Source: Desulfovibrionaceae bacterium (GTDB taxonomy: Bacteria > Desulfobacterota > Desulfovibrionia > Desulfovibrionales > Desulfovibrionaceae). Taken from it: a stretch of DNA of 64,000 nucleotides. The first letter of the stretch is position 1, and the number at the start of each line of letters is the position of its first letter. Both the position numbers and the translations under genes were made by a program. The notes under the pieces are model-generated. The model had not been told where the DNA came from, did no database searches, and worked only from the letters and a program-made list of their open reading frames with translations. Shown in pieces: positions 1 through 18,689 of this stretch. Location: the NCBI GenBank assembly GCA_963665185.2, contig CAXXPO010000006.1, positions 14,156 through 78,155 of the forward strand, written 5' to 3'.

Positions 1-1245
1 GGTGAAGGAGTGAGTGGCAGCCCGGTTGATGAAACGGGTGAAGGGATCTTCGTCCCGCGCGGAATCTCCAGCGCCCTCCGGACTCTGCGGCGCGTCCCAC
101 TGCCGGGCCGTGGAGGCGATGGAGTGCAACGCTCCCTCCAGGGCAGGCGTGGCTTCGGGTTGCCCCTCCTTTGTCTGGCACTGACAGGACGCGGCCTGCC
201 CCAGACGGATAAGCCCGCCGTCCAGACTCTGCAAGAACCTTGCGCTGAAGGAGCAAAGCGAATGTTCGCATCCCGGCGGCACAAAATGCTCTGCCCGGAC
301 CATGCCGTCTGTCTGAACTTCCAGCCCGGCCATAATTTCCGGCAAGGTCAGCCGGGCATCCACTGCAGGCGACTCAGGGTAACGCCCGAAAAAGCTCATG
401 GGCTGAAAATGCACTCCGCGCACACCGGGCATATTGTCCAAAGCAAAACGCAAAATATCGCCCAGCTGGTCGTCGTTGACCCCGCGCCGCAAGGTGGGCA
501 CAAGCACCACGCCTACCTGGGCATCGATCAGACGGCGCACGGCCTGCACTTTTTCCGCCCAAAGGCTCCGCCCCCGGATGATCCGGTAAACCGCATCGTT
601 CACGCCGTCGAACTGAAAAAACGCAGAGGACAATCCAGCTTCAGCCAAACGCATGGCATATTCCGGCTCCTGAGCCATGCGCAGACCGTTGGTGTTGACC
701 TGGATAAAGGTGAATCCAACCTCACGGGCCATGGCGATAATTTCCGGCAGATCGTCGCGGACGGTCGGTTCGCCCCCGGAAAGTTGCAGGTTGCAACCGC
801 CTGTGGCCCGCATGGCCGCTTCCAGCTGAAAACGCAGGGTTTCCAGAGCGGGGTCTGAATTTTTGGACGCTTTGTCTCCGCTGGAAGCAAAACAAACCGG
901 ACAGCCGAGATTGCACCGGGCTGTAATTTCAACAAGCGCGGTACAGGTACGCTGATTGTGCTCCGGGCACAGGCCGCAGGCAAAGGGACAGGCCGCACCA
1001 TTACTCGTCTGGGTGGGCGGCTTGTGGGCGATTTTAGGGCGCGACCAGGACATGATGTCCGGCTCGCCCCGCCAGAACAGCGCTTCGAACCTGCCGTGAT
1101 CCGGGCAGGTCTTGATCAGAAAAACATCGGTTCCCCTCCGTACACGATTTGCGGGGATACGGTTCAGGCAAACCGGACAAACGCTTTCGGTTCGTCCCAG
1201 GACTTCTTCAGAAAAGACATTTGAGATCGGCAATTCAGAATCCAT
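1..1245 (-). CDS. radical SAM enzyme with N-terminal Cys-rich zinc-ribbon region; 3' end lies beyond window start
   Basis: Absent from the ORF track because it has no in-window stop. My reverse translation from ATG 1245 reads MDSELPISNVFSEEVLGRTESVCPVCLNRIPANRV..CPDHGRF..ACPFACGLCPEHNQRTCTALVEITARCNLGCPVCFASSG..LQLSGGEPTVRDDLPEII. It has the canonical CxxxCxxC (CNLGCPVC) and a GGEP motif. I checked every codon from 1245 to 1 in this frame and found no stop. The start overlaps the upstream stop by 11 nt. Confidence 0.88.
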   Translation of the reverse strand, partial: MDSELPISNVFSEEVLGRTESVCPVCLNRIPANRVRRGTDVFLIKTCPDHGRFEALFWRGEPDIMSWSRPKIAHKPPTQTSNGAACPFACGLCPEHNQRTCTALVEITARCNLGCPVCFASSGDKASKNSDPALETLRFQLEAAMRATGGCNLQLSGGEPTVRDDLPEIIAMAREVGFTFIQVNTNGLRMAQEPEYAMRLAEAGLSSAFFQFDGVNDAVYRIIRGRSLWAEKVQAVRRLIDAQVGVVLVPTLRRGVNDDQLGDILRFALDNMPGVRGVHFQPMSFFGRYPESPAVDARLTLPEIMAGLEVQTDGMVRAEHFVPPGCEHSLCSFSARFLQSLDGGLIRLGQAASCQCQTKEGQPEATPALEGALHSIASTARQWDAPQSPEGAGDSARDEDPFTRFINRAATHSFT

Positions 1246-1699
1246 TTGCGTCGCTACTTTCCCTGGACTGGGTGGGATCGATACCATGGGAGGTGAGGAT
1301 TTCCAGCACCTTGCCGTAGGTTTCCCCCACGATGTTTCCACAAACCTGCATGTCCGGCGCACCGTCGCCCACGATGCTGGCACAGTCCGTTCCGCCGTGC
1401 ACCGCGCCCACGAACTCGTCGAACCAATCGGACAATTCGGAAAGCATCAGGGCAAAGACATCGTCTTCCCTCTCCTCGTCCGTGCCTTTACCTGCATAAA
1501 GCCCCAAAAGGCAGGCTCCTCCGGTCAATGCGCCGCAGCTTCCGCCACGAGCGCCCACACCGTGGCACAGTCCGCCCATTGCACGGACCAGACCGGGGTT
1601 TTCCTCACCCTGCGCATCCAGTCCCATGCGCAGAATGATCTGACTGCAACAATATCCCCTGCCCCCGTGGGACAGCACATCCATCAGATAATCGCTCAT
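1235..1699 (-). CDS. C_GCAxxG_C_C family protein
   Basis: 154-aa ORF with YCCSQ and GGSCGALTGGACLLG motifs and later conserved Cys residues typical of this family. Tightly packed within the operon. Confidence 0.85.
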   Translation of the reverse strand: MSDYLMDVLSHGGRGYCCSQIILRMGLDAQGEENPGLVRAMGGLCHGVGARGGSCGALTGGACLLGLYAGKGTDEEREDDVFALMLSELSDWFDEFVGAVHGGTDCASIVGDGAPDMQVCGNIVGETYGKVLEILTSHGIDPTQSRESSDANGF

Positions 1700-1713
1700 G
1701 CTCTCTCCTCACC

Positions 1714-2451
1714 TCATATCGGGGTGGCCACGGCAAGATACAGACCCGGCATTTGTTTTTTTGCCGTACACACGGCCTGCTCCGCGGCTTGGCGTCCTCC
1801 GGGCCCCTGCCCGGTGACGGTTTCCCAAAAACCTTCCAGGCTACCATGTTCAAAAACCAGCCGGGCCGCCGTTTCCTTGAGCAACCGGGTGTGGTCCTCC
1901 ACATGAAGCACACGAAATCCGGCATCTTCAAAAAGAACACGCATATCTTCCAACCGCCGCGCCCTGGCAAAACAGCTCGTCACAGGCCAATCCGGTTCCC
2001 GCCCGCGACGCACGAAAATGTCCGAAACCACCAGCCACCCCCCCGAAGAGAGCATCCGGTGAAACTCCCCAAGCACGGAGGCCGGATCCTGCGCAAGGTT
2101 CAAGGCACATTCGCACAGCACCATATCCAAAGCCCGGGAACGAATGGGAAGACCGTCCAGACTGGCACGGATCAGAGGAAACCCCGCATTGCGGGCCTGT
2201 TCCAAAAGATCCGTGGCAAGATCCAGCCCCATGGCCCGCGTGAAGCCCTGCGATCTCAGATATTCAAGCGTCCCGCCCGGCCCACAGCCCGCATCAAGGA
2301 TTCGCCAATCCAAATTGAGGGAGTCGGCCGCGCCGTTCACAAGTTCCAATGCCCGACGGGTCAGGTCCAGCCCGCCGGGACGCAGGCACGCTCCAAGAGA
2401 CGCACGCACGGAATCCGCCGCGTACAGCGGAACATGCAAGGCCGTAGGCAC
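1714..2451 (-). CDS. class I SAM-dependent methyltransferase
   Basis: LDAGCGPGGT glycine-rich SAM loop, DMVLCECAL, GGWLVVSD. I moved the start from 2538 to GTG 2451: GGAGG lies 7 nt upstream and the GTG overlaps the TAG stop of the upstream gene (TAGTG). Confidence 0.85.
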   Translation of the reverse strand: MPTALHVPLYAADSVRASLGACLRPGGLDLTRRALELVNGAADSLNLDWRILDAGCGPGGTLEYLRSQGFTRAMGLDLATDLLEQARNAGFPLIRASLDGLPIRSRALDMVLCECALNLAQDPASVLGEFHRMLSSGGWLVVSDIFVRRGREPDWPVTSCFARARRLEDMRVLFEDAGFRVLHVEDHTRLLKETAARLVFEHGSLEGFWETVTGQGPGGRQAAEQAVCTAKKQMPGLYLAVATPI

Positions 2452-2663
2452 TATTTGTCCTCCAGCAACCGCTCCACCTCCAACATACGGCCCATGGCCA
2501 CCTCCTCGGGTACCAAAGGCAGGCCGCACTTGGGACAAACCAGAAGTTCCACGTTGAACACACTGCCCAGATAGGTGATCTCCACGCCTTTGGGCTCCAA
2601 GGGCATGTCACAGCAGGCGCATTTCCAGTCCGATCCGTCGTCGGGAATAAATCGCAGGCTCAT
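2451..2663 (-). CDS. small double-CxxC zinc-ribbon/redox-type protein (70 aa)
   Basis: MSLRFIPDDGSDWKCACCDMP...LLVCPKCGLP. The start lies 1 nt after the upstream stop codon. Position and size match what I recall as the DVU_1557-type small protein, but this is unverified. Confidence 0.7.
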   Translation of the reverse strand: MSLRFIPDDGSDWKCACCDMPLEPKGVEITYLGSVFNVELLVCPKCGLPLVPEEVAMGRMLEVERLLEDK

Positions 2664-2664
2664 A

Positions 2665-4974
2665 TCACACCCCCTCCACTTTCATGCGGTGGCTCCATGC
2701 CCTGAAAATCCGGTAGGAATCGCCTTCCTTCGCATATTCCAGCCAATAGGTGACCTCGCCCAGCCGGGCGCAGACCACCCTCCTGTCGTCGGAATGGCGA
2801 AATCCCCGCCCGCTCGGTTCCGCTGTATGCAAGGTGCGGCGCAGGTCGTCGTCCAAAATACGCCGTTCTTCCAATTGCTCCCGCACTTCCGGAGCGGCCA
2901 ACAAACTGATGCCGTCCCATGGCCGGACCGGGGCATGCTCCCCACCCTCTTGTCCTGCCCACAGGTCGGCCATATTCCGGCGCAGACGCGCCCTGCCCTC
3001 GCGCCGCCCATTAAGTCCGGCAACAGACGCGGCAGCCGGGTCAGGCTTTTCCGGATCGGGAAAAAGCAAATCCAGAAGGTGCACGGCCCGCTTGCCCGTA
3101 CCGGCCAGACGATCGCGGCACATGGCGCAGTAGGCCAGAAAGTCGTTTTCGCTCTGTCCTGCCCGACGGGAAATGACCTCCCGGGCAAGCTTCGGATTGG
3201 CGTTCTCCTGCAACCCCCCAAAACCGCAACATTCAGTCATATCACCGTTGTGAGGCAGGTCGTCCACGGGTTGTTCCAAACGTTTGAGGATGTTGCGCAC
3301 GGCTTGGCGCACGGCAGGCGCATTCCGGGTGGTGCAGGGGTCGGTCACGGCCAGGGGCATATTCTCAAAGGATGTACAGTTCTCCGGCAGTCCATGGGCA
3401 TCCAAGACTTCCCACAGGGAAGTGGCCTGGAACTCGGGACAGTGTTCACCGAAAACAGACAGACAACTGGAACAGGCGGTCACTATGCGCGGCCTGCCCA
3501 GTTCGTTCCAGGCAGTACGCAATTTGTCCAGCACTGCATCAAACTCCTGTTCGCGCCCGGCCCAGTGCGCCGGAATACCGCAGCAGGCAAGAAAAATCCC
3601 CACTCCGGCTTGTCCTTCGGAAAGCACCCCGCGCAGGTATTCCCACGAGGCCAGCACCTTGTCCGGTCCCATGCCAGCCAACTGGCAACCGGGAAAAAAC
3701 AACCACCCGCTGGTTCTGGTACCAGGTGCATGCCGGGCAAGAAAATAGGCCTCGTCCAAACTGGTGTTCATTTCCGTAAGCGCAAAATCATGGGCCGAAG
3801 GCGGCATGCGGTTTTCCGCCACCATACCCCGGCGCGAGGTCAGACAGAGTTCGGCCATGGAAAAGTCTTCCGGGCACACAGCTTCGCACAATCCGCACAG
3901 ACTGCACGAATTGATCATGGTATTGGACTGGTGCGTGCCTTTGACAATGGCCTCGTTGTTGTACATCTGCCGCGCATAAACCTTAGGATACGCCTTGAAA
4001 TGCTCCAGATACGCGCAGGACTTCACGCACTCCATGCACTCACACTGTATGCAACGGGCCGCTTCCGCACGAGACTGCCCTTCGTTGCACATAGCAACCT
4101 GCTGCAAGGCCGGATCCTGCCGGACCAGGGGAACACCTTGCAGTGAGGTGAAAAGCCGGGTTTCAAACGGTCCTTCGCGACGACGCTCTGCGGTCAGGGA
4201 CGCGCCCTGCATAAGCCTGTCCATGGAAGTGGCGGCCCGACGGCCATCGGCCACGTCGTCAATGAAACGCCGCACTCCCGACTGACCGGAAAACCCACCG
4301 ATAAAGACACGCTCCCTGGTCCAGGCCAAGGTCATGGGGTCTGCCGCGTCGGCCTCCAGACGAAGGTCCTTTTCCATCTCCGCATCCTGGGAAATATACG
4401 CCGTGTCGTAACTGCGGATGTCCAGAAGTTCGCTGTCGAGCCTGTCCACCGATTCAAATTCCACCCCCAAGCCCTTGAGCAGGGAAAGGTCCTGGTCCAG
4501 AACCGCGGCAGGCAGTCTTTCTTCCGGCATTTCCCGCAACCAGCCGCCAATCTGTCCGGGCAGATGGAGCACAGTTACAGAGTAACCTTTCTTGCCCAGA
4601 TCGAAGGCCACGCACAAACCGCTGGGGGCAGCGCCAACCACCAGGGCATTCTTTCCCCGGGCAGGAAGACGCAAGGGTTTGCCCACACGAGGCGCCATAT
4701 TCACGCAGGTGCGCTCCAGCAGGCCCACGGCTATGGCCCCACCCAAAGGTTTACGCAAACAGGCATCCTGGCAAGGGGCTTCGCACAACCGGGCACTTAT
4801 CCCGGCCAAAGGAAGGGTTGCTTCAAGGACCTTGCGAGCCTTGGCGGCATTTCCCTCGGCCATGGCCCGAAGAAAAGACCGCACATCCACATGAAGAGGA
4901 CAGGCGGCCCGGCAGGCCGGTGGTTCGTCCTGGATGCACTTGGCTTCCCAGGCCCGTAATTGCTTCTGATCCAT
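2665..4974 (-). CDS. fusion flavoprotein: GltD-like FAD/NAD(P) oxidoreductase + 2x[4Fe-4S] ferredoxin + HdrD/GlpC-like CCG domains
   Basis: CRAACPLH and VVGAAPSGLCVAFDL (dinucleotide fold); CIQCECMECVKSC and CSLCGLCEAVCPE (ferredoxin); FFPGCQL and ECCGFGG (CCG domains). Start set at ATG 4974 (MDQKQL), preceded by AAGGAG. Confidence 0.85.
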   Translation of the reverse strand: MDQKQLRAWEAKCIQDEPPACRAACPLHVDVRSFLRAMAEGNAAKARKVLEATLPLAGISARLCEAPCQDACLRKPLGGAIAVGLLERTCVNMAPRVGKPLRLPARGKNALVVGAAPSGLCVAFDLGKKGYSVTVLHLPGQIGGWLREMPEERLPAAVLDQDLSLLKGLGVEFESVDRLDSELLDIRSYDTAYISQDAEMEKDLRLEADAADPMTLAWTRERVFIGGFSGQSGVRRFIDDVADGRRAATSMDRLMQGASLTAERRREGPFETRLFTSLQGVPLVRQDPALQQVAMCNEGQSRAEAARCIQCECMECVKSCAYLEHFKAYPKVYARQMYNNEAIVKGTHQSNTMINSCSLCGLCEAVCPEDFSMAELCLTSRRGMVAENRMPPSAHDFALTEMNTSLDEAYFLARHAPGTRTSGWLFFPGCQLAGMGPDKVLASWEYLRGVLSEGQAGVGIFLACCGIPAHWAGREQEFDAVLDKLRTAWNELGRPRIVTACSSCLSVFGEHCPEFQATSLWEVLDAHGLPENCTSFENMPLAVTDPCTTRNAPAVRQAVRNILKRLEQPVDDLPHNGDMTECCGFGGLQENANPKLAREVISRRAGQSENDFLAYCAMCRDRLAGTGKRAVHLLDLLFPDPEKPDPAAASVAGLNGRREGRARLRRNMADLWAGQEGGEHAPVRPWDGISLLAAPEVREQLEERRILDDDLRRTLHTAEPSGRGFRHSDDRRVVCARLGEVTYWLEYAKEGDSYRIFRAWSHRMKVEGV

Positions 4975-5009
4975 GGCTGCTCCTTGACTGTGTTCCGTGT
5001 TCTCCGAAT

Positions 5010-5046
5010 ACAAAACAAACCCCGGACAACATAACGTTGTCCGGGG
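5010..5046 (-). terminator. intrinsic terminator/attenuator between mop and the flavoprotein gene
   Basis: Perfect 11-bp stem CCCCGGACAAC/GTTGTCCGGGG (5020-5030 and 5036-5046) with a 5-nt loop. On the minus strand it is followed by TTTGTTTTGT. It lies 18 nt after the mop stop. Confidence 0.75.
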
Positions 5047-5063
5047 CGGTTGTGAATGTCAAA

Positions 5064-7793
5064 CTAGATGGACTTCAAACCTTCCAACACCTTTTCCGGC
5101 AATGCGGGCAGCTTCCTGATGCGCACGCCGCAGGCATTGTAGATGGCGTTGATGACCGCCGCATGCGGGCAGGTCAGAGGCAGTTCGCCGACTCCGGAAG
5201 CGCCGTGGGGACCGTCGGGACGCGGTGATTCCACGTACACGATCTCCATGTTGTCCGGGATGTCCTTGGCATAGGGGAAACCTGCCCCCCGCATGGTGGA
5301 ATGCTTCATGATGTCTTCGTAGTCTTCGCTCAGAGCCAGACCGATACCCTGGGCAAGACCACCGTAGATCTGGCCGTCGACCAACAGCCTGTTGGCGATT
5401 TTGCCGATGTCGGCAACCAGGGTCATCTTTTCGACCGTGGTCTTGCCCGTGGCGATTTCCACGGCGACCTCGGACATGAAGATGCCGTACATGTAACAGC
5501 AGAAGGGGCTTCCCTGGCTGTTCTCGTCGCATTCCGTGGCAGGCGCGGTCCACTTGCCATTGTACTTGGTGGGAATTTTCTCCGCAACCATGTCCTTGTA
5601 GGTACGGAAGCTTCCATCGGATTTCCGCATGCCGCCCAGAAGCAGCTCACAGGCCGCCTTGATACCCTGGCCGACCACGACCTGGGAACGGCTGCCGCCG
5701 GCGGGACCGCCGTTGGGGCAGAACTGGGTGTCGTTGAGCACCAGGTGGATCTGCTCGGGCTTCAGCCCCAGAGGACGCAATGTTTCATGGGCCACTGCGA
5801 GCGTACCCATGTCCGCACCCTGACCATGGTCGTGCCAGGTGGTGTACACGGTCACGGTGTTGTCGTCGTGGAGTTCGACATCGGCTTCGGCAGAGTCCGG
5901 ACCGTCCAGCCCGCTGCCGTATACGCCAAGCGAAATGCCGACGCCGCGTTTGACTGCGTCGGTGGAGTTCGCCTTGGCCTTGGCCTTGGCAGCTTCATAC
6001 TTGGGCTTGAGAAGCTCCAACATCTCCGGCAGACTGTAGACTTCCGGGTCCTGGCCCGTAGGTGTGGTGCTGCCCTTGCGGTAGGCGTTCTTCAGGCGCA
6101 GTTCCAGAGGATCCATGCCCAGTTTTTCCGCCAGTTCGTCCATGAGAACTTCCGAGGCGAACTCGGACTGCGGCGAACCGTATCCGCGGAAGGCCGAACC
6201 CCAGGCATGGTTGGTGCAAACCGTGCGGCCGTTGCCCCGGATGTTGGCAATGTCATACCCGGCACCGATGAACTGGGCGCCACGCAGGGTCAGCAGGTCG
6301 CCGAACTCGGAGTAGGGACCGTGGTCGCAGGTCCAGTCCGTTTCCATGCCCTTGATCATCCCGTCCTTGGTTGCGGCCATGCGCACGTTCATGAAGAACG
6401 GCGAACGCTTGCCCGTGTATGTCTGCTGCTGGAACCAGTTGTAGCCCAGGTAGCAGGGACGGCCGGTGGCCATGGCGGCGGCGCCCACCAGGGCTTCCAT
6501 GGTGGGGCTGAACTTGTAGCCGAAGGTGCCGCCCGCAGGGTTCTGCACCATGATGACGTTTTCAGCTTCAATACCCAGGCCCGGAGCGATCATGTACAGG
6601 TGCAGATGCAGGCCGATGGACTTGGAATGGATGACCAGCTTGCCCTCGTCGTTGAAATAGGCAAAGCCTACATCCGGCTCAATGGGCATATGCGGCTGGC
6701 GGCCCACATAGTAATCGCCTTCGGCAACAACCAGGCCGTTGTCGGCGAAAATGGGCTCGGTTTCCTCACCCTTGGCAATGCGCAGTTCATAATAGACGTT
6801 TGGCGTGCCCGGATGGATTTCAATGGCGTCCTCAGCCATGGCGGCCGGGGCGCTCATGTATTCGGGCAGCGGCTCAAGCTCGACTTTGACCTTGGCGGCA
6901 GCGGCTTTGGCATTCTTTTCCGTGTCGGCGCAAACCATGGCGATGGCGTCGCCGAACTGGAAGACCTTCTCATCGCACAGAATGGGGCGATCCCAACCGT
7001 CGCCCTTGTTGGTGGGGAAGGTGATCAGCCCGGTGATCCGGTTTTTGCCCTTGATGTCCTTGTGGGTCACGACCTTGAACACGCCGGGCATTTTTTCCGC
7101 TTCGGAAGTGTCGATGGACAGAATCCTGGCATGGGAAATCTCGGCCTGCACCAAAGCGATGCGCAACGTGTCCGGAGGCAGCTTCAGCCCCAGGTCGGCA
7201 CCATAATCCAGTGTGCCCGTCACCTTGGCCACGGAGGAAGGACGGGGATATTTCGTACCCCAGATGCGGCCGTCTTCGGGAATCTTGAAAGCCAGTTCAT
7301 CCATGCTCATTTCACCGCGCAGCACCTTGGCGGCATCCAGGGTGGCATCGACAAGCTGCTTGTAGCCGGTGCAGCGGCAGGCATTGCGGTGCTTCTGGAA
7401 CCAGTCACGGATGTCTTCGCGGGTGGGGCTGGGATTGCCGTCCAGCAGCGCCTTCACCGAAACGATGAAGCCGGGGGTGCAGAATCCGCACTGCGCACCG
7501 CCGTGGGCAATCCAGGCCATCTGGATGGGATGCAGGTTGTCCGGGGTACCGATGCCTTCGATCGTCACGATTTTCGATCCTTCCTTGAGGCGGGACACCT
7601 TTGTCACGCAGGAACGCACCAGTTTGCCGTCAAGAATCACACTGCACGCACCGCAATGGCCCTCGGCGCAACCGACCTTCACGCCGGTAAGGCCAAGCTG
7701 GTCGCGCAGCACTTCGGAAAGCCGTGCGTCGGCATCGACGATCAGCTTACGTGCCACTCCATTTACCAATACATCTCTTTTAAGCATCGTCAT
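5064..7793 (-). CDS. mop: aldehyde oxidoreductase, xanthine-oxidase family molybdoenzyme with two [2Fe-2S] domains (Mop)
   Basis: Long collinear similarity to the remembered D. gigas MOP sequence: GLTGVKVGCAEGHCGACSVILDGK, HGGAQCGFCTPGFIVS, RNACRCTGYK, GRQPHMPIEPDV, GGTFGYKFSP, ending PEKVLEGLK. Start chosen at ATG 7793, which has AGGAGG 4-5 nt upstream. Confidence 0.95.
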   Translation of the reverse strand: MTMLKRDVLVNGVARKLIVDADARLSEVLRDQLGLTGVKVGCAEGHCGACSVILDGKLVRSCVTKVSRLKEGSKIVTIEGIGTPDNLHPIQMAWIAHGGAQCGFCTPGFIVSVKALLDGNPSPTREDIRDWFQKHRNACRCTGYKQLVDATLDAAKVLRGEMSMDELAFKIPEDGRIWGTKYPRPSSVAKVTGTLDYGADLGLKLPPDTLRIALVQAEISHARILSIDTSEAEKMPGVFKVVTHKDIKGKNRITGLITFPTNKGDGWDRPILCDEKVFQFGDAIAMVCADTEKNAKAAAAKVKVELEPLPEYMSAPAAMAEDAIEIHPGTPNVYYELRIAKGEETEPIFADNGLVVAEGDYYVGRQPHMPIEPDVGFAYFNDEGKLVIHSKSIGLHLHLYMIAPGLGIEAENVIMVQNPAGGTFGYKFSPTMEALVGAAAMATGRPCYLGYNWFQQQTYTGKRSPFFMNVRMAATKDGMIKGMETDWTCDHGPYSEFGDLLTLRGAQFIGAGYDIANIRGNGRTVCTNHAWGSAFRGYGSPQSEFASEVLMDELAEKLGMDPLELRLKNAYRKGSTTPTGQDPEVYSLPEMLELLKPKYEAAKAKAKANSTDAVKRGVGISLGVYGSGLDGPDSAEADVELHDDNTVTVYTTWHDHGQGADMGTLAVAHETLRPLGLKPEQIHLVLNDTQFCPNGGPAGGSRSQVVVGQGIKAACELLLGGMRKSDGSFRTYKDMVAEKIPTKYNGKWTAPATECDENSQGSPFCCYMYGIFMSEVAVEIATGKTTVEKMTLVADIGKIANRLLVDGQIYGGLAQGIGLALSEDYEDIMKHSTMRGAGFPYAKDIPDNMEIVYVESPRPDGPHGASGVGELPLTCPHAAVINAIYNACGVRIRKLPALPEKVLEGLKSI

Positions 7794-7873
7794 TTCCCTC
7801 CTAAGCTTATTGCTTTTGTCGGAACAAAAAATAGCCCCCGACATCGCGTCTGTTCAAAACGGAACACATAACC

Positions 7874-8899
7874 TCACGCTCCCTTGCCGAATCCGCAGGC
7901 CGGATAGCGGCAGGTCGAACAGCTTTCGCAAAAACCGCCATGCCCCAGGGCGACGATGTCCTCCCGGCAAAGACGCTTCCCGGACAGAATACGCGGAACA
8001 ATCAGATCGAACACGCTGGCCCGAAAATACATGACGCAACCGGGCAGCCCGAGCACCGGAGTACCGCCCAGGTAGGCCAGCATGAACATGGCTCCGGGCA
8101 AAATGGGTGCACCGTATGCAACGACCTCCGCCCCGGACGCCCGTATGCTGGCCGGAGTCTGGTCGTCCGGGTCCACGGACATGCCGCCCGTGAGCACGAT
8201 CATGCCCACACCGCGTTCTTTGAAATCGTGAATGGCGGCCACGGTGGCGGCCGGATCGTCGGACACAAAAACCTGATCATGCACCACGCAGCCCAGCTCT
8301 GAAAACTTGCTGCGCAGCACCGGGCCGAAACCATCCTGAATACGGCCTTTGAAAATCTCGCTTCCCGTGGTGATTATCCCTACGGATCGAGCCTTGAGTG
8401 GACGCACTTCAACGAGCGGGGCAGCCTGTTTGCAAATGTGCTCCGCCTGACGGACAGGCGCTTCGCCAATAGCCACGGGAACAACCCGCGTCCCGGCCAG
8501 GGCACGCCCCTTGCGCACGAACTGATTGGTATGGATGGTGGAAAAAACGATATCCGAAATGGAATTTATGGCAAACAGGGCTGCGGCGTTGACACACAGC
8601 AGGCCGTCATGTGTGGCAGTAAGGGTGACTTTTCCCTCGGACGGCGTGGAAAGCGCAATGCCTTGTCCACTCGCGGCCAGAGCAATGCGGTTGGCCGCAT
8701 CGTCCTCGTGCATGAGTCCGTCTTGCAGATCGAAGACGAACAGATGCTCCTTGCCTATGGACAGCAGCATATTGATATCTTCGGCACGAACGACATGTCC
8801 CCGTCTGAAGACCGGTCCTTTGTCTTCTCCCGGAACAATGCGCGTGATGTCATGACCCAAAACTGTCCCAACAGCCTTGCGAACAGGAATAACCCTCAT
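7874..8899 (-). CDS. molybdopterin-binding (MoeA/MoCF-biosynthesis-like) protein with C-terminal Cys cluster
   Basis: 341 aa. GIITTGSEI...LTGGMSVDPDD is a MoCF_biosynth-type core. C-terminus is CESCSTCRYPACGFG. Lies immediately upstream of mop. Confidence 0.75.
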   Translation of the reverse strand: MRVIPVRKAVGTVLGHDITRIVPGEDKGPVFRRGHVVRAEDINMLLSIGKEHLFVFDLQDGLMHEDDAANRIALAASGQGIALSTPSEGKVTLTATHDGLLCVNAAALFAINSISDIVFSTIHTNQFVRKGRALAGTRVVPVAIGEAPVRQAEHICKQAAPLVEVRPLKARSVGIITTGSEIFKGRIQDGFGPVLRSKFSELGCVVHDQVFVSDDPAATVAAIHDFKERGVGMIVLTGGMSVDPDDQTPASIRASGAEVVAYGAPILPGAMFMLAYLGGTPVLGLPGCVMYFRASVFDLIVPRILSGKRLCREDIVALGHGGFCESCSTCRYPACGFGKGA

Positions 8900-9017
8900 T
8901 GTGCGACCCCTGGATGTTGGAGAAGCGCAACAATTTGCAACGGCGATTTCAGTCTGGGCCTGTCCCCTTGTGCCCGGGACTTAAAACATGCCACCTCTGA
9001 CATAAGTCATACGTGGC

Positions 9018-9047
9018 ATACTAAAAAGGATAAAGAGGAATTGTCAA
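9018..9047 (-). promoter_or_regulatory. putative sigma-70 promoter for the Mo cluster
   Basis: Minus strand reads TTGACA (9047-9042), an 18-nt spacer, then TAGTAT (9023-9018). About 115 nt upstream of the 8899 start. Confidence 0.5.
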
Positions 9048-9528
9048 TTCATTGCATGAAAAAAAAGTCCACTTTGACATGGAGAGAGGCTGAAAAACAA
9101 CTTAAAATGCCGTTTTAATTCAGCTAAACAAGAAAGCACTTTTGATTATGCTTTTTATAACATATCAGTGTGTCCGATGCGCTTCCGAACAACAATTGTG
9201 GTGCACTGCATCATGCCTTCCGTCTTGCACATCCGAACAAACGCACAACAACTGCCGCGTATTTTCAACGTAAAAAAACACTTTTAACGGATTCGTTACA
9301 GTCGCGGGCGCGGCACGCATCTCTGCCATCCCAAACGTCAGACACCGCATACCGTAAACCACCTTCCGTGTCATGGACCGCCCCATACTTTCCCAGTCCG
9401 GTTTTCTCCAAAAAAAATCACGCCCGCGTGACATCAATGACACCCATCCTTCACCAGAAAAACTTGAAAGCCCCTAAAAAGAATACGCATTCCTCCATAA
9501 ACCCAACCCCTCTTTATAAGGAGCCATC

Positions 9529-12500
9529 ATGAAACGTTTTGCATCCTTGTTGACCATGCTGCTGGCATTCGCCCTCCTTTACGGATGCGGCGGCAGCAGC
9601 GGTGACGACTCGTCCGCGCCAACGCCTACCACCGTCAATTCCTTCGGTGTCATGAGCGATCCACACTACTATGACACCGCGCTCGGCACCAATGGAACGG
9701 CGTATGAAGCCTATGTCGCCGGCGACCGCAAGCTGCTGTCCGACAGTCCAGCCATTTTGGAATCGGCCATCGATCTGTTCATTGCCAAAAAACCAGCGTT
9801 CGTCCTTATCCCCGGCGACCTGACCAAGGACGGGGAACGCTCCGGACACCAAAAATTCGCCGACGCAATCAAACGCCTGGAAGACAACGGCATCCAGACC
9901 TATGTCATCTGCGGCAACCACGACATCAACAATGCCGATGCCGTACAGTTCAGCGGCGCGACCAAAACTCAGGTAGCCACGGTAACGCCTGTTGAATTCA
10001 CGACCATTTACGCCAAGTACGGCTACGACCAGGCCCTTGCCCGCGACAGCAATTCCCTGAGCTACGTTGCTGACCTGCCCGGCGCAGGCAATCTGCGCCT
10101 GATCGCCATTGATTCCTGTCTGTACGACAAGAACACACCTACCGATCCCATCACCGCGGGAAAAATCAACGACGCCACCCGCGCCTGGGTCATGGAGCAG
10201 ATAGCCAACGGAAAGGCCAGCGGCAAGACCGTCATCGGCATGATGCACCATGGCATTCTGGAACACTACGACGGCCAGTCCACGGAATTTCCCGAGTATG
10301 TCGTGGCCGACTGGAAGGACCTCTCAAGGCAGTTTGCCGCCGCAGGCATGCAGACCGTGTTCACCGGCCATTACCACGCCCAGGACATCGTGACCGACAG
10401 CGTCATCGGCATGACCGACGTGGAAACCGGCTCCCTGGTGACCTACCCCAGCCCCCTGCGCATAGTGGAAGTACAGGATGCGGGCGGGGTGGCAAGCTTC
10501 AAGTACTCCTCCATGAATGTCACTTCCATCACGGTTCCCGATTCGTCCTCCTCACACGCCAGCCTGGCATACAATGGAAGCACAACCTTTCCCGCATACT
10601 CTGAAAAATTCCTGGATGACGGCCTTTACAACCTGGCCCTTGCCCAACTTGTCCATGTCTACGGGCAGGACGGCTCGCTCGATTCAACCAAACAACTCGC
10701 AAAGGCCCTGGCCGAGGCACTCAAGGCGCATTACGTCGGCGACGAAACCCCCGACTCCGACACACAGAATTACTACAAAGCATTGCAGGCCAACTCCTCC
10801 ACCGCCTTCTTCGGAAAATACCTGCAAGCCCTCTGGACCGACCTGGCTCCGCACGACACAGATATCAGCGACAAGGCCGCCAAGCCAATGGGCAGCGCCT
10901 TCCACCTGACCCTGATGCACGTCAACGATGTCCATTCACATCTTGAGGCAAGCAGCAACAGCATCTCTCCCAACAAAATCAAAACCTATGTCTCCATGGG
11001 CGGATTTCCCCGTCTGGCAACCAAGGTCAAACAGATCCGTACCAACAGCGACAACTCCCTGTTGCTGCATGCCGGTGACGCCATCATGGGAACCCTGTAT
11101 TTCACGGTGTTCAACGGCACTGCCGACTTCACCATGATGAACGACATGAAATTCGACGCCATGGCTGCCGGAAACCACGAATTCGACAGAGGCCCCGCCC
11201 TGTTTGCCGATCTCATCACCATCGCCAACTTCCCCGTTCTGGGTAGCAACATCGATGCTTCAGCCGACGCCAACCTCAACGGCAAGCTGAAGAATTACGT
11301 CATCAAGGAACTCAACGGACAACGCGTCGGCATCTTCGGCCTGACCACTCCCACGACATCCAACCTGTCCAGCCCCGGCGCAAACGTCAAATTCAACGAC
11401 CCCATTGCTACGGCCAAGGCCATTGTCGCCGAACTCCAGGCCAGGGACATCAACAAGATCATCTGCCTGAGCCACCTGGGCTACGACGAGGAAAAAGATC
11501 TGGCCGGCAAGGTGGATGGCATCGACATCATCATCGGCGGCCACTCACACACCACGATGGGGGCGCTCAGCTCGCTGGGGATAACGGCGGACGGAACCTA
11601 TCCCGTCAAGACGACAAGCCCCAACGGCGATCCCGTCTATCTTGTCTCCGCCGGCGACTATGCCAGGATTCTCGGTATCGCCTCCCTGTACTTTGATGCC
11701 CACGGAAAGATCGTGAAGTTCTCCGGCATGCCGACCCTGCTGCTGGGTGACGACTTTCTGGATGGCGACAAGAATGCCGTCAACGCCACCCGTCGCGCAC
11801 AGATCATGCATGTTCTCTACACGACCCCCGATGCCGAAGTCGTGGCTGAAGACTCTGCCACGGGTGCGGTTCTCAAAACCTACGCCGACCAGGTGGAGAC
11901 CATGAAATCCACGGTCATCGCACAGGCAGGCGAAGACATCCCCCACACCCGTGTACCTCTGACAGACAAACTGAGCTACGGCAGTCCCAGCGACTTCCCC
12001 AACGGCAGCTTCCTCGCTCCCATTGTTGCCGAAGGCATGTACGTGAAGGCCAAGGAAATCGGGCAAAACCCGCACCTGGCCATCCAAAACGCTGGCGGAG
12101 TTCGCGTCAGCCTGCTCAAAGGCGACGTGACCATCGGTGTCGCCCACACCATTCTGCCCTTTGCCAATATGCTCTACATGGTGGAACTCACCGGCAAAGA
12201 AGTCTGGGACGCCCTGGAAGGCGGCGTGGACACCGCTGTCAACGGAACAAGCTCCGGTGCCTTCCCCTACCTGGGCAACGCCCGCATGGCCGTGAACAAC
12301 GGCAACCCCGCCGGCAGCAAAATAACCTCCATTGAGATCAAGGACGCCTCAGGCAACTGGGTTGCGGTTCCCAAGGACGACACAAGCAAATACAACGTGG
12401 CCACCAACAACTACATCGCCGGCGGCGGCGATTTCTACGACACTCTGAAAAACGCTGCTGGCAGCCGTGTGGATACGGGCATCGTGGATGCCGACATCCT

Positions 12501-12582
12501 TATCGACTACTTCAAGAGCCTGGGCACTGTGTCCAGAATGGCTGGCGGCTTCACCAGTGTAACCTGGACCGCGGCTCCGTAA
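9529..12582 (+). CDS. lipoprotein with tandem metallophosphoesterase and 5'-nucleotidase/UshA-like modules
   Basis: Signal peptide plus lipobox (LLYGC). Module 1: SDPHYY, PGDLTKDG, GNHD, MMHHG, GHYH. Module 2: VNDVHSHLE, AGDAIMG, GNHEFD, GGHSH, plus a 5'-nucleotidase C-terminal-like region. RBS AAGGAG. Confidence 0.88.
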   Translation: MKRFASLLTMLLAFALLYGCGGSSGDDSSAPTPTTVNSFGVMSDPHYYDTALGTNGTAYEAYVAGDRKLLSDSPAILESAIDLFIAKKPAFVLIPGDLTKDGERSGHQKFADAIKRLEDNGIQTYVICGNHDINNADAVQFSGATKTQVATVTPVEFTTIYAKYGYDQALARDSNSLSYVADLPGAGNLRLIAIDSCLYDKNTPTDPITAGKINDATRAWVMEQIANGKASGKTVIGMMHHGILEHYDGQSTEFPEYVVADWKDLSRQFAAAGMQTVFTGHYHAQDIVTDSVIGMTDVETGSLVTYPSPLRIVEVQDAGGVASFKYSSMNVTSITVPDSSSSHASLAYNGSTTFPAYSEKFLDDGLYNLALAQLVHVYGQDGSLDSTKQLAKALAEALKAHYVGDETPDSDTQNYYKALQANSSTAFFGKYLQALWTDLAPHDTDISDKAAKPMGSAFHLTLMHVNDVHSHLEASSNSISPNKIKTYVSMGGFPRLATKVKQIRTNSDNSLLLHAGDAIMGTLYFTVFNGTADFTMMNDMKFDAMAAGNHEFDRGPALFADLITIANFPVLGSNIDASADANLNGKLKNYVIKELNGQRVGIFGLTTPTTSNLSSPGANVKFNDPIATAKAIVAELQARDINKIICLSHLGYDEEKDLAGKVDGIDIIIGGHSHTTMGALSSLGITADGTYPVKTTSPNGDPVYLVSAGDYARILGIASLYFDAHGKIVKFSGMPTLLLGDDFLDGDKNAVNATRRAQIMHVLYTTPDAEVVAEDSATGAVLKTYADQVETMKSTVIAQAGEDIPHTRVPLTDKLSYGSPSDFPNGSFLAPIVAEGMYVKAKEIGQNPHLAIQNAGGVRVSLLKGDVTIGVAHTILPFANMLYMVELTGKEVWDALEGGVDTAVNGTSSGAFPYLGNARMAVNNGNPAGSKITSIEIKDASGNWVAVPKDDTSKYNVATNNYIAGGGDFYDTLKNAAGSRVDTGIVDADILIDYFKSLGTVSRMAGGFTSVTWTAAP

Positions 12583-12611
12583 CAGCGCATTCCGCAACTC
12601 CCCGTCCCGCA

Positions 12612-12644
12612 AAAGGCCCCGGCAAACGTCGGGGCCTTTTTTTT
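12612..12644 (+). terminator. intrinsic terminator
   Basis: 10-bp stem AAAGGCCCCG/CGGGGCCTTT with an 8-nt loop, then a T-run. Confidence 0.85.
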
Positions 12645-12814
12645 GACGGCGCATTGATCGGGTAGAAGAATTCACCCAAAACCATGCGGGCTGCATTGTT
12701 TTATTTTTCATGTGGAGCTATTCAACAAATCACGTACCTGGGATTTAAACTCCTGGGTTCCCCATTGTGCCGGTGCCTGTTTTTTATGACGGCTTTACCC
12801 CGTGGAGGATGCCA

Positions 12815-14215
12815 ATGAATTATCTGAAAACGTACTCCCCTGTTATCGTGGCCGTTCTTATGGCGCTCATTCCAACGCCTGAAGGGCTTCAACCGAATGC
12901 CTGGTATTTTCTCAGCATTTTCGTGGGGGTCGTTGTCGGCCTCATCGTGGAACCTGTTCCCGCCGCGCTTGTCGGACTTGTGGGTGTGGCTGTCGTGGCC
13001 ATGCTGGGCTTGGTGGGCAACGCCTCCGCCAGCAGCAAATGGGCATTGTCGGGTTTTTCCAACGGGGTCATCTGGCTTATTTTCGCCGCCTTCATGTTCG
13101 CCCTGGGATATCAGAAGACAGGGCTGGGCAAGCGCATCAGCCTTTTGCTGATCAAGTATCTCGGCAAGAACACTCTGGGGCTCGGGTATGCCGTGGCATT
13201 TTCCGATGCCGTCCTGTCGCCCTTCATGCCATCCAATACCGCCAGAAGCGCGGGAACCATTTATCCGGTGGTCAGCAACATCCCGCCCATGTTCAATTCC
13301 ACCCCGGAACATGAACCTCGCAAAATCGGCTCGTATCTCATGTGGGTCGGCATCGCCTCCACCTGCGTCACAAGCTCAATGTTTCTGACCGCCCTGGCTC
13401 CCAACCTCCTGGCAGTGGACCTCATCGCCCAGGGAACGGGCATCACCATAACCTGGGGCGGATGGGCAAAAGTGATGATTCCGGCCATGCTCCCCCTGTT
13501 TCTGCTCACCCCCTGGCTGGCCTATGTCATTTATCCCCCCACCCAAAAACACTCGCCCGAGGCTCCGGCCTGGGCTACCGACGAACTCCGGAAAATGGGG
13601 CGCATCACGACCAAGGAAATCATGATGCTCGGCTATGCTATCCTGGCCTTGATTTTCTGGATCTTTGGCAAGCAGCTCGGCGTTAACAGCACCGTGGCCG
13701 CGATTTTCGTACTCAGCCTGATGGTTTTGACAAATATCATCACATGGGAAGACGTCATCACCAACAAGGGCGCGTGGAACGTCCTGGTCTGGTTCGCCAC
13801 CCTGGTTTCCATGGCCGCAGGCCTGAAACAGGCAGGCGTTCTCAAGTGGATCGGCGATCTGGTTTCAATCCACCTTCAGGGAATGCCCCCTTCCACAGTG
13901 GCCATCATGCTGGTGCTGCTCTTCTTTGGACTGCATTACTTCTTCGCCAGCACCACGGCCCACACCACGGCCCTCATGCCCTTGTTCCTGGCCATCGCCG
14001 CCCCTCTTCTGCCTGTGGAAATGCTCCCCAAAGTAGCCCTCATGCTGGCAGCCAGCCTGGGGCTGATGGGCATCATCACGCCATATGCCACTGGTCCCTC
14101 CCCTATCTGGTACGGGGCAGGATTCCTCAGCCAGGCTCGCTGGTGGGCTCTGGGCGCCATATTCGGAGGCATCTACCTGGTCGCCATGATCGTGGTGACC
14201 ATGCTCTACGTATAG
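12815..14215 (+). CDS. DASS/SLC13-family anion (di/tricarboxylate or similar):sodium symporter
   Basis: Polytopic membrane protein with SNTARSAGTIYPV and a second hairpin-like motif. Start set at ATG 12815 (MNYLK), 6 nt after GGAGG. Confidence 0.8.
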   Translation: MNYLKTYSPVIVAVLMALIPTPEGLQPNAWYFLSIFVGVVVGLIVEPVPAALVGLVGVAVVAMLGLVGNASASSKWALSGFSNGVIWLIFAAFMFALGYQKTGLGKRISLLLIKYLGKNTLGLGYAVAFSDAVLSPFMPSNTARSAGTIYPVVSNIPPMFNSTPEHEPRKIGSYLMWVGIASTCVTSSMFLTALAPNLLAVDLIAQGTGITITWGGWAKVMIPAMLPLFLLTPWLAYVIYPPTQKHSPEAPAWATDELRKMGRITTKEIMMLGYAILALIFWIFGKQLGVNSTVAAIFVLSLMVLTNIITWEDVITNKGAWNVLVWFATLVSMAAGLKQAGVLKWIGDLVSIHLQGMPPSTVAIMLVLLFFGLHYFFASTTAHTTALMPLFLAIAAPLLPVEMLPKVALMLAASLGLMGIITPYATGPSPIWYGAGFLSQARWWALGAIFGGIYLVAMIVVTMLYV

Positions 14216-15631: not shown

Positions 15632-16054
15632 ATGCTGCTACCGAATTTCCAGGATCTCAAATCCCTGTTCGACAGAGTCAGGACCATTGCCATCATCGGC
15701 GCCAAAGACGTGCAGGGGCAGCCGGTGGACATGGTGGGCCGCTACCTTCTGGATGCCGGGTACACCGTGATTCCGGTCCACCCCAAACGCAAAAACATCT
15801 GGGGACTTGCGACCTACCCTAATCTGACCGATGTGCCAGAGCCTGTGGACATGGTCAATGTCTTCCGCGCCCCGCAGTTCTGCCCCGCCCACGCCAGGGA
15901 AACCCTGGAGTTGAAAAAAAGACCCGCCGCCTTCTGGATGCAATTGGGCATTGTCAGCCCCGAGGCCGTTCAGATTCTGTCTCCCCACGCTATCCAGGTC
16001 ATCCAGAACGAATGCCTGATGGTTGTCCATAAAAGGCTGAAGGAACAACCATGA
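15632..16054 (+). CDS. CoA-binding domain protein
   Basis: IAIIGAK...GYTVIPVHPK...VNVFR pattern typical of YccU/YneT-type CoA-binding proteins. Confidence 0.8.
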   Translation: MLLPNFQDLKSLFDRVRTIAIIGAKDVQGQPVDMVGRYLLDAGYTVIPVHPKRKNIWGLATYPNLTDVPEPVDMVNVFRAPQFCPAHARETLELKKRPAAFWMQLGIVSPEAVQILSPHAIQVIQNECLMVVHKRLKEQP

Positions 16055-16518: not shown

Positions 16519-16535
16519 TATCCGAGGATTGCAAC

Positions 16536-17369: not shown

Positions 17370-17491
17370 TGTTTCTGACCATTTTTTTGACTCCAGACAT
17401 TATTTTCGCCTTCCACGATCATCGCCTCAAAAAATTTTCTCCTTTTTATTACAACCTGTTAAAGAAAGACACACATCAAAATTCACACTGC

Positions 17492-17506
17492 TGGCACATA
17501 TTTGGC
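17492..17506 (+). promoter_or_regulatory. putative sigma-54 (-24/-12) promoter
   Basis: TGGCACatattTGGC has the GG and GC elements at the canonical spacing. It lies 34 nt upstream of ATG 17540, in an AT-rich intergenic region. Confidence 0.55.
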
Positions 17507-17539
17507 TTATGGCAAAAAACAACAAGGAGGAGTGTTGCC

Positions 17540-18646: not shown

Positions 18647-18689
18647 CGTCTCTTCGATTCAATTTGAAATTATTGCAGGAAGATATAAA

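Follow-up and report, generated by a model that had tools for sequence, protein, structure and literature searches.

Gene content of the mop locus

The window analysed in this work is the whole stretch of 64,000 nucleotides (nt) from a Desulfovibrionaceae bacterium (assembly GCA_963665185.2, contig CAXXPO010000006.1, positions 14,156 to 78,155 of the forward strand). Positions 1-8899 of the window carry seven genes, A to G, all on the minus strand, which include mop (gene B), the gene of a molybdopterin-dependent aldehyde oxidoreductase (Mop), and gene G for TrsS, a radical S-adenosylmethionine (SAM) protein. Comparison with related loci reveals that genes B to H recur in nearly constant order in at least three phyla, and that the genes between mop and its maturation genes were never seen without mop in the sampled loci while mop can occur without them. 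On these grounds we tentatively interpret genes C to H as a Mop-dependent accessory module. The seven genes of the window, with product lengths in amino acids (aa), are:

8899 to 7874, minus strand: gene A, a MoCF_biosynth (MoeA/MogA-type molybdopterin-binding) protein of 341 aa (PF00994, 86 bits)
7787 to 5064, minus strand: gene B = mop, molybdopterin-dependent aldehyde oxidoreductase of 907 aa (NF045668)
4974 to 2665, minus strand: gene C, 'diclust_near_Sec' Fe-S flavoprotein of 769 aa (NF045663, 950 bits against a cutoff of 530)
2663 to 2451, minus strand: gene D, DVU_1557 family / DUF7479 protein of 70 aa (NF045645, 94.9 bits against a cutoff of 60; PF24292)
2451 (GTG start) to 1714, minus strand: gene E, DVU_1556 family class I SAM methyltransferase of 245 aa (NF045667, 214.8 bits against a cutoff of 155)
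1699 to 1235, minus strand: gene F, DVU_1555 family C_GCAxxG_C_C protein of 154 aa (NF045669 and PF09719)
1245 to beyond position 1, minus strand: gene G = TrsS, radical SAM protein with 415 of its 469 aa inside the window (NF045646)

A first-pass annotation of this stretch had likewise recognised seven same-strand genes, and the identities that it gave them all held in comparisons with the hidden Markov models (HMMs) of NCBIfam and Pfam and with the PDB. This includes the last gene, which it had taken for a radical SAM enzyme leaving the window: despite the truncation, the 415 residues of G present here score 536.3 bits against the NF045646 cutoff of 490. The frame of G is open for 415 codons up to the window edge, and this is why the gene was missing from the list of open reading frames (ORFs). 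The junctions are also as that annotation had read them, with a gap of 1 nt between C and D (2665/2663, TGA-T-ATG), an overlap of 1 nt between D and E (TAGTG at 2451) and an overlap of 11 nt between F and G (1235-1245). To these we add the E/F junction, a gap of 14 nt with a strong ribosome-binding site, GGTGAGGAGAG, which it did not mention. The start of mop is the ATG at 7787, which has AGGAGGG 9 nt upstream and corresponds in the alignment to Met1 of Desulfovibrio gigas MOP; with this start the two proteins have the same length, 907 aa. For gene C we chose the ATG at 4974 and not the TTG at 5013, as the NCBIfam alignment starts at this ATG, AAGGAG lies upstream and the orthologues begin with MDQK.

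The sequence beyond base 1 is supplied by a metagenome contig of the European Nucleotide Archive (ENA), L001 (related loci are cited by such L numbers), which matches the window at 100% identity along 1300 nt. It contains the rest of G, followed by four genes with overlapping junctions:

off-window (L001): gene H, PaaK-like adenylating enzyme of the DVU_1553 family (NF045666)
off-window (L001): gene I, XdhC, 'XdhC family aldehyde oxidoreductase maturation factor' (NF045664, 417 bits against a cutoff of 350)
off-window (L001): gene J, MocA-like nucleotidyltransferase with an HD domain, DVU_1551 family (NF045665, 430 bits against a cutoff of 315)
off-window (L001): gene K, CobC-like histidine phosphatase

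The seven-gene set of the first-pass annotation thus stands as regards its members but not as a complete cluster, which also comprises the adenylating enzyme, XdhC, MocA-HD and phosphatase genes. On L001 (3853-6635) mop is split into ORFs of 616 aa and 142 aa, probably by an assembly frameshift; the mop gene of the window is intact.

Mop was the first enzyme of the xanthine oxidase family with a solved structure. The window Mop scores 1702.9 bits against the NF045668 cutoff of 1100 and aligns over its full length with PDB entries 1dgj (1481 bits) and 1sij/1vlb (1470 bits). Its only Pfam domains are Fer2, Fer2_2, Ald_Xan_dh_C, MoCoBD_1 and MoCoBD_2, so that the single chain has two [2Fe-2S] domains, an a/b hammerhead and two MoCo-binding domains, and the flavin adenine dinucleotide (FAD) domain is absent. 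The eight [2Fe-2S] cysteines are 0.99 conserved, and the catalytic glutamate motif GVGELP (Glu869 of D. gigas MOP) is identical in the alignment with 1sij/1vlb. The protein is hence assigned to the xanthine oxidase family, and a molybdopterin cytosine dinucleotide (MCD) cofactor and aldehyde oxidation are predicted for it, with indirect support from the MocA-like and XdhC genes of the same operon.

Genes I and J exceed the HMM cutoffs of NF045664 and NF045665, and so constitute the XdhC/MocA maturation set of MCD enzymes; the N-terminal half of J reaches 134 of the 186 bits that the MocA model TIGR03310 requires. The H product belongs to the PaaK family (PDB 4r1l, E-value 1.2e-31). Gene A matches PF00994, yet lies under every MoeA equivalog cutoff. 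It has a C-terminal CxxCxxCxxxxC motif, the protein ending in CESCSTCRYPAC (window 7874-7990), and Cys288, Cys324, Cys327, Cys330 and Cys335 are invariant among 72 orthologues. The motif appears Fe-S-like or Zn-like, and we know of no counterpart in MoeA or MogA proteins. As gene A lies ahead of mop in many loci, and is found with it even where the module is missing, it is probably a Mo-cofactor handling factor for Mop.

The association has already been catalogued by NCBI curators, and the window adds one more member to it. NCBIfam holds a block of curated models for this neighbourhood (NF045645, NF045646 and NF045663 to NF045669), whose cutoffs are exceeded by nine proteins encoded in the window and its continuation. 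The family names DVU_1555, DVU_1556 and DVU_1557, which the first-pass annotation had cited, are therefore genuine and form part of a set of models that covers the whole neighbourhood; DVU_1559 is the D. vulgaris Aor. One table entry of a 2026 review (PMC13188914) lists a 'Radical SAM selenoprotein TrsS', crediting Haft & Tolstoy 2025, mSystems 10:e0141724. A literature search for DVU1551-1558, DUF7479, DUF5714 and the cluster as such found no papers, and no established function is given in the literature consulted. The texts consulted on D. gigas MOP and D. desulfuricans MOD consider flavodoxin as the partner and are silent on the gene cluster, and neither the D. gigas genome paper nor a review of the history of Mop discusses the neighbourhood of mop. 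To the existing catalogue the present analysis adds the asymmetric co-occurrence of the genes, a conserved terminator-like hairpin, gene fusions, the missing NAD(P)H domain of C, the Fe-S-like fold of F and the ArsM-type cysteines of E.

Conservation and variants of the neighbourhood

We aligned 28 TrsS homologues and scanned one genome per GTDB species, in which at least 565 species encode a TrsS relative. The best 80 of these at least 565 matches were taken with 10-kb flanks and searched by tblastn with the window proteins. These TrsS loci span many orders of Desulfobacterota as well as Chloroflexota (Anaerolineae) and Bacillota (Desulfitobacterium, Desulfotruncus), that is, at least three phyla. 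Every one of the 63 loci with at least 7 kb of upstream sequence carries mop upstream on the same strand, and 61 of the 62 informative loci, which come from different species, have the colinear arrangement B-C-D-E-F-G-H, a recurrence far beyond chance. Genes I, J, K and A are frequent in the same loci, though less constant than B to H. The five genes following mop, which the first-pass annotation had regarded as coupled to it, do co-occur with mop in this comparison.

The converse relationship was examined in a sample anchored on Mop, for which metagenome contigs were scanned with Mop as the query. Gene C is present in 51 of 60 mop loci with at least 2.5 kb of downstream sequence, and C through G in 37 of 46 with at least 6.5 kb. 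The nine loci of the 60 that are without the module have maturation genes only, for example in the orders B-I-J-K-A (L103), I-J-K-B (L163) and B-A (L121 and L132). Among the sampled loci the co-occurrence is hence asymmetric: the C-H module is never seen without mop, and mop occurs without the module. No column of the Mop alignment separates module-bearing from module-less loci at thresholds of at least 90% in one group and at most 35% in the other.

The D. gigas locus was located by rebuilding the MOP sequence from the PDB alignment, matching it in the protein collection and fetching the corresponding region (L164, CP006585.1). It contains A, MOP, a nitroreductase gene, C, D, E, F, G, H, XdhC and a histidine phosphatase gene, and thus the full module; the inserted gene (12800-13414 of L164) encodes a 204-aa nitroreductase-family protein between mop and C. 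An insertion at the same position was seen in an Anaerolineae locus (L062), where two large genes between mop and C appear, by eye from their translations, to be FdhA-type molybdopterin oxidoreductase-like.

Several loci show fusions of neighbouring genes into single ORFs. These are C-D, with D at the C terminus of C (L088, L107, L111), G-H (L013, L025, L033, L034, L064) and J-K (L069, L071, L120). In L069 (9992-12211) the C terminus of TrsS is in addition fused to a DUF5714 domain, a distant relative of the C_GCAxxG_C_C protein F that matches the model of the 'metal-binding double selenoprotein MbdU' at 120-135 bits, below its cutoff; a free DUF5714 gene lies between E and F in L043 (about 2650-3540). 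These fusions indicate that C-D, G-H, G-DUF5714 and J-K may form sub-complexes. Two loci with partial losses are also informative, as L084 (B-C-D-F-H-I) has neither E nor TrsS, and L139 is without E and retains only the C-terminal 190 residues of TrsS; from this joint loss, E and G may work together.

The order of genes within the module is swapped to D-F-E-G in L070, L138, L142, L153 and L162, a subset that includes Desulfitobacterium, and three of these loci, L070, L153 and L162, also have I and J in reversed order. Two further loci, L087 (12718) and L017 (6325), share 6.3 kb of 99.9% identical sequence as far as the mop stop codon. Beyond this point they differ, C-J following in L017 and a MocA-HD-like gene and unrelated genes in L087. 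This split reflects either a strain-level presence and absence of the module or a chimeric assembly.

Around approximately 160 loci we also grouped the recurrent flanking families, which were named by eye from representative sequences. The most frequent are a sigma-54 NtrC-type response regulator (25 loci), a formate dehydrogenase-like molybdopterin oxidoreductase (17 loci) and an iron-type alcohol dehydrogenase (15 loci), followed by parts of Mo/W-type ATP-binding cassette transporters (8-14 loci) and a 248-aa DUF364-like protein (10 loci). No ars, sel or mer genes are found among the recurrent flank families of these loci.

Module proteins and expression layout

The largest protein of the module, C, combines a Fer4_20 domain (PF14691, 65.9 bits) for two [4Fe-4S] clusters, a GltD-type FAD domain, a ferredoxin domain for two further [4Fe-4S] clusters (Fer4_17) and two HdrB/HdrD-type CCG motifs. 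Both CCG motifs are complete (C430/C464/C465/C501/C504 and C547/C582/C583/C616/C619), the dicluster cysteines lie at 308-320 and 357-367, and across 114 orthologues the conservation of every cluster and CCG cysteine is 0.99 or higher. The consensus of the C family has a canonical FAD site (GxGxxG...E...GG and VFAGGG...DGRRAA), in comparison with which the window protein is slightly degenerate (GAAPSG, LH). Alignments to the GltD-like modules 9bov, 9n5u and 8oh5_C show that the second Rossmann domain of approximately 160 aa, which binds NAD(P)H, is missing: residues 212-216 of C span residues 301-460 of 9bov. The first-pass annotation had described C as a GltD/ferredoxin/HdrD-like fusion; the domains are indeed as it stated, but in the absence of the NAD(P)H domain C, whose NCBIfam name includes 'pyridine nucleotide-disulfide oxidoreductase', is not an NAD(P)H enzyme of the GltD type. 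Its motifs rather describe a predicted Fe-S/FAD wire that ends in an HdrB/HdrD-type site. The N-terminal module of C is homologous to the GltD-like modules fused to molybdopterin oxidoreductases in the structures 9bov and 8oh5_C, and this part also matches the YgfK, AegA and YgfT models. Gene D encodes a small protein with four invariant cysteines (C15/C18/C43/C46), which is zinc-ribbon or rubredoxin-like.

The methyltransferase E shares cysteines with the arsenite methyltransferase ArsM. C115 and C160 align with C174 and C224 of the Cyanidioschyzon enzyme (CmArsM, 5eg5), and the motif-I cysteine C56 presumably corresponds to ArsM C72; their conservation is 0.96 for C56, 1.00 for C115 and 0.98 for C160. 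As a motif-I cysteine is common in methyltransferases, C115 and C160 are the specific ones. At 53 bits E remains far from the cutoff of 263 of the ArsM model NF008823, and with 245 aa that start about 20 residues before the methyltransferase core it is without the N-terminal ArsM domain that carries Cys44.

F exceeds the cutoffs of PF09719 (79.6 against 27 bits) and NF045669 (173.5 against 103 bits), and its C18, C55, C106 and C120 are invariant. A search of the PDB with the single sequence found nothing. The AlphaFold2 (AF2) model is all-helical with a mean confidence (pLDDT) of 92, and the only meaningful match of a fold search is the split-Soret cytochrome c of D. desulfuricans (1h21, 'novel iron centre'; probability 0.99, TM-score 0.63), which the family profile also reaches with an E-value of 0.0036 across the TCGALxG and rCG motifs. 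The iron centre of 1h21 is a Cys-ligated [2Fe-2S] cluster. F is therefore more likely an Fe-S (2Fe-2S-like) carrier than a thiol/disulfide protein.

Full-length TrsS (from L001) has 469 aa and ends in ...RGCCIHV...FCAWN. It contains the radical SAM motif C111/C115/C118 (CxxxCxxC), an N-terminal HMPTM-type ribbon (C23/C26/C47/H50) and two auxiliary motifs, C86/C90/C93/H96/C101 and C435/C436/H438/C450, all of them invariant or nearly so. Its AF2 model has a pTM of 0.87, with pLDDT falling to 50-62 around residues 350-370. In a Foldseek search this model matched the tetraether lipid synthase (Tes) GDGT-MAS (7tom, 7tol) over the full length, for 7tom with an E-value of 2.7e-39 and a TM-score of 0.76, the next best match being MoaA at 0.42. 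By sequence, TrsS aligns with 7tol at 297 bits, residues 325-410 being unaligned and specific to TrsS. Against the Tes model NF045702 it scores 300.8 bits, under the cutoff of 450, and covers only positions 2-322 of the 486 in the profile. Lipid genes are absent from the flanks of related loci.

The window TrsS is the Cys form and not a selenoprotein. There is no in-frame TGA in the full-length gene or in approximately 120 orthologous TrsS genes, nor any in TrsS or its neighbours in about 160 loci. A candidate CU motif beside Cys326 in L128 was rejected, its codon being TAG, one substitution from the expected GAG (Glu), and hence a nonsense mutation or a sequencing error.

The regulatory features around these genes comprise:

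5009 to 5047, minus strand: terminator- or attenuator-like hairpin with a T-run; stem 5047..5019, 13 bp (8 G-C)
5056 to 5028, minus strand: weak sigma-70-like match overlapping the mop-C hairpin
9018 to 9047, minus strand: candidate sigma-70-like promoter upstream of A (TTGACA-18-TAGTAT, 10 of 12 positions, by consensus scan only)

The distance between mop and C is 89 nt, in which the G+C-rich hairpin (5047..5019) is followed by TTTGTTTTG. Among about 110 loci this spacer is never 15 nt or shorter and has a median of 98 nt, and the C-D, F-G, G-H, H-I, I-J and J-K junctions are 4-nt overlaps in most loci, with H and I overlapping in 70%. The first-pass annotation had remarked on the tight packing of these genes. 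This is confirmed for the overlapping junctions, which are kept across loci, but mop itself stands outside the packed unit, set apart by the spacer and its hairpin. A hairpin of -10 kcal/mol or lower with a T-rich tail follows mop in 61 of 109 orthologous B-C spacers (56%); in the identical test such hairpins occurred in 17 of 327 shuffled spacers (5%) and in 2 of 69 A-B spacers. This layout suggests a highly expressed structural gene, mop, followed by attenuated accessory genes. An internal promoter in the mop-C spacer is possible in view of the weak match at 5056..5028.

Upstream of A, between this gene and a divergent gene, lies an A+T-rich intergenic region of 630 nt (8900-9528; G+C content 0.44 against about 0.60, and 0.436 at 9001-9500), which contains the best of the sigma-70-like matches (9047..9018). 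No sigma-54 promoter match was found upstream of A or mop, window-wide matches being below chance expectation, and an Rfam search of positions 1-13000 returned no credible riboswitch or other RNA element (best E-value 0.13). On the plus strand, 9514-12582 is an ORF of 1017 aa with metallophosphoesterase and 5'-nucleotidase domains in its C-terminal 560 residues only. It overlaps a putative minus-strand ORF of 250 aa (9514-10266), which a different gene caller listed among the genes of L001, and the start of the 1017-aa ORF is accordingly provisional. Further along, also on the plus strand, 16051-19616 holds a second, unrelated radical SAM set that consists of a CxxCxxCC-domain protein, a DnaJ-domain protein, a radical SAM/SPASM protein and a 308-aa protein that has no Pfam match.

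Possible roles of the module and comparison with known systems

In our best reading the locus has three layers, namely Mop, a maturation set formed by A, I, J and K, and an accessory module, C-H, between mop and the maturation genes. As a working hypothesis, which we favour only tentatively, the cluster would be an instance of a conserved Mop-TrsS operon of anaerobes, in which C-H act as a Mop-dependent accessory module and an Fe-S/FAD/HdrD-like wire feeds a Tes-like radical SAM enzyme that operates with an adenylase and a methyltransferase. Mop, followed by its leaky terminator, would be the abundant catalytic enzyme. A, I, J and K would make and insert MCD, forming a self-sufficient unit with Mop, and the C-H module would depend on Mop without being needed for making it. 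The electron relay is taken to start from Mop because the aldehyde/acid couple has a very low potential and Mop is without the flavin domain of its family. Electrons of such low potential, released by aldehyde oxidation, would then leave Mop via the distal [2Fe-2S] cluster. Their NAD(P)H-independent acceptor would be C, in which a pair of [4Fe-4S] clusters on either side of the FAD is followed by two CCG-type clusters. Together with D, as a rubredoxin-like protein, and F, as an Fe-S carrier, C might pass them to the three-cluster TrsS, to a disulfide-type substrate at the CCG site, or to both. It is conceivable that TrsS, physically coupled to H, acts on a substrate adenylated by H, plausibly the carboxylate product of Mop, and that the ArsM-like E subsequently adds a methyl group to a thiolate-bound or other soft-atom centre of this TrsS substrate.

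The gene identities, the synteny, the asymmetric co-occurrence, the fusions, the cofactor-binding motifs and the missing NAD(P)H domain are observed, whereas we infer all of the electron-transfer steps, the direction of flow, the link of the Mop product to H and the nature of the substrate. Several points weigh against the proposal. The terminator after mop implies that C is much less abundant than Mop. For this reason, and because Mop has been obtained as a homodimer free of C and flavodoxin, according to the review of the history of Mop, accepts its electrons in vitro, it is improbable that C serves as the bulk acceptor in the cell. The presence of CCG domains suggests a thiol/disulfide chemistry for which the relay has no precise place, and the lack of Mop residues that co-vary with the presence of the module argues against a specialised docking surface. 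The TrsS loci are, moreover, the best 80 of at least 565, such that more distant TrsS relatives could occur without mop. Finally, the location of the module between mop and XdhC, with the overlap of H and I in most loci, fits a maturation role equally well.

In such a role, which we consider unlikely though by no means negligible, C-H would construct, insert or regenerate a labile feature of the Mo centre, such as a sulfur or selenium ligand or a reduced dithiolene, before XdhC acts. Sets of a radical SAM enzyme, an adenylating enzyme and a Cys-rich carrier build the ligands of hydrogenase and nitrogenase, and the placement of C-H ahead of XdhC and MocA, their position after a terminator-like hairpin, consistent with accessory-level expression, and the presence of mop at all of the 63 TrsS loci agree with an analogous function here. 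The same can be said of the NCBIfam name of the neighbouring XdhC homologue, 'aldehyde oxidoreductase maturation factor', and of the TrsS family name, which marks a selenoprotein in some organisms. The D. gigas aldehyde oxidoreductase (AOR) is itself anomalous in the xanthine oxidase family in having no sulfido ligand, and its inactive preparations are reactivated by dithionite and sulfide (review of the history of Mop). Against this role, nine of the 60 mop loci have only genes of the A/I/J/K set, and their Mop sequences have no distinguishing columns; a sulfur or selenium donor (cysteine desulfurase, SelD) is also absent from the recurrent flank families. D. gigas has the full module, yet its enzyme has been reported, in the papers on PDB 1VLB and the same review, with ordinary MCD and no extra ligand. 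Because of this report and the existence of module-less mop loci, a stable tailoring of the pterin or Mop cofactor by the module is disfavoured. It is quite doubtful, in our estimate, that C-H make or maintain, via XdhC, a labile and so far unobserved state of the Mo centre or a sulfur, selenium or carbon ligand, which would be lost or absent in the aerobically purified enzyme. If true, however, this would explain the missing sulfido ligand, the reductive reactivation and the unsettled physiological substrate of Desulfovibrio Mop.

A catabolic coupling, in which Mop and H turn an aldehyde, such as the product of a neighbouring alcohol dehydrogenase, into acyl-CoA and C serves as a heterodisulfide-reductase-like sink, the other genes being minor or unrelated, appears rather unlikely to us. 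The iron-type alcohol dehydrogenase gene that flanks 15 loci, the listing of DVU_1559 under ethanol metabolism in D. vulgaris proteomics, the membership of H in the PaaK ligase family and the two complete CCG motifs of C are in its favour, but it leaves unexplained the conservation of D, E, F and G in the colinear loci, the fact that TrsS, and not Mop, is the fusion partner of H, and the low-expression layout after the terminator. Nor would a dedicated radical SAM enzyme be expected in simple aldehyde oxidation. ArsM-type cysteines in E raise the question of an organo-metalloid pathway, in which E, TrsS and the Cys-rich proteins would methylate or alkylate As, Sb, Se or Te, either detoxifying an inhibitor of Mop or making a compound with an aldehyde intermediate for Mop. 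The match of DUF5714, fused to TrsS or free in the module, to the MbdU model, the naming of TrsS and C_GCAxxG_C_C proteins as optional selenoproteins and the known inhibition of Mop by arsenite (review of the history of Mop) could be read in the same sense. Nevertheless, E is far below the ArsM cutoff and without the N-terminal ArsM domain, ars, sel and mer genes are not among the recurrent flank families, and no selenocysteine codon occurs in the approximately 120 TrsS genes. ArsL and ArsS are the radical SAM enzymes of organoarsenical biosynthesis, and TrsS is akin to Tes rather than to these; in sum such a pathway seems improbable. Most improbable of all is that C-K are an independent operon that merely adjoins mop. 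The terminator-like hairpin and weak promoter-like match in the mop-C spacer, and the divergence of the near-identical L087 and L017 exactly after the mop stop codon, would accord with it, but synteny with mop in 63 of 63 loci from several phyla, and the downstream XdhC and MocA-like genes as maturation factors specific to Mop, contradict it.

After thirty years the physiological substrate and electron acceptor of Mop are unsettled, and the enzyme is odd in its family in having neither the sulfido ligand nor the flavin domain. A six-gene module of Fe-S, radical SAM, adenylase and methyltransferase proteins is tied to its gene in loci that include that of D. gigas, and the family names point to D. 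vulgaris. If our tentative proposal of a Mop-dependent accessory module is correct, it offers candidates for a flavin-containing Fe-S partner of Mop and for a radical SAM reaction of the Tes type that aldehyde oxidation would drive or to which it would be linked. These hypotheses are addressable in genetically tractable sulfate reducers.

Among known systems, the window shares its gene order with about 120 other loci of the TrsS/DVU_1551-DVU_1557 neighbourhood catalogued in NCBIfam, in which the window copy of TrsS represents the Cys form. Its Mop aligns over all 907 aa with D. gigas MOP (PDB 1VLB) and D. desulfuricans MOD (PDB 1DGJ), with the same domains, cluster motifs and catalytic motif, and the D. 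gigas gene cluster is of the same kind, differing in the nitroreductase gene between MOP and C and in the absence of a MocA-HD gene at the locus. E has the class I methyltransferase fold and the C72/C174/C224 cysteine positions of ArsM (PDB 4FR0, 5EG5), from which it differs in the missing Cys44 domain, in its score (53 against 263 bits) and in the absence of an ars context. The N-terminal part of C matches the models of YgfK (with XdhD), AegA and YgfT, GltD-like Fe-S flavoprotein partners of xanthine-oxidase-family enzymes in E. coli, and Mop matches related Mo-subunit models, with all scores far under the family cutoffs; unlike C, these partners retain an NAD(P)H domain, and CCG domains are absent from them.

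The likeness of C to HdrD and HdrBC lies in a ferredoxin-like dicluster domain and two CX(n)CCX(n)CXXC motifs, together with a flavin and the adjacency to the gene of a pterin-dependent oxidoreductase. The class II benzoyl-CoA reductase component BamB-I is an example of an Hdr-like module attached to a pterin enzyme. C differs from HdrD/HdrBC and the Hdr-like modules in uniting these elements in a single chain, together with a Fer4_20/FAD module of the GltD type in which the NAD(P)H domain is missing, and reduction of a disulfide by it is a prediction. TrsS, in turn, has the fold of Tes/GDGT-MAS (7TOL, 7TOM), including the N-terminal metal ribbon, the CPFxCGLCxxH...C and CxxxCxxC motifs and the C-terminal CCIH...FC, and departs from it in residues 325-410, in an HMM score under the cutoff, in its bacterial host and in its non-lipid genomic context.

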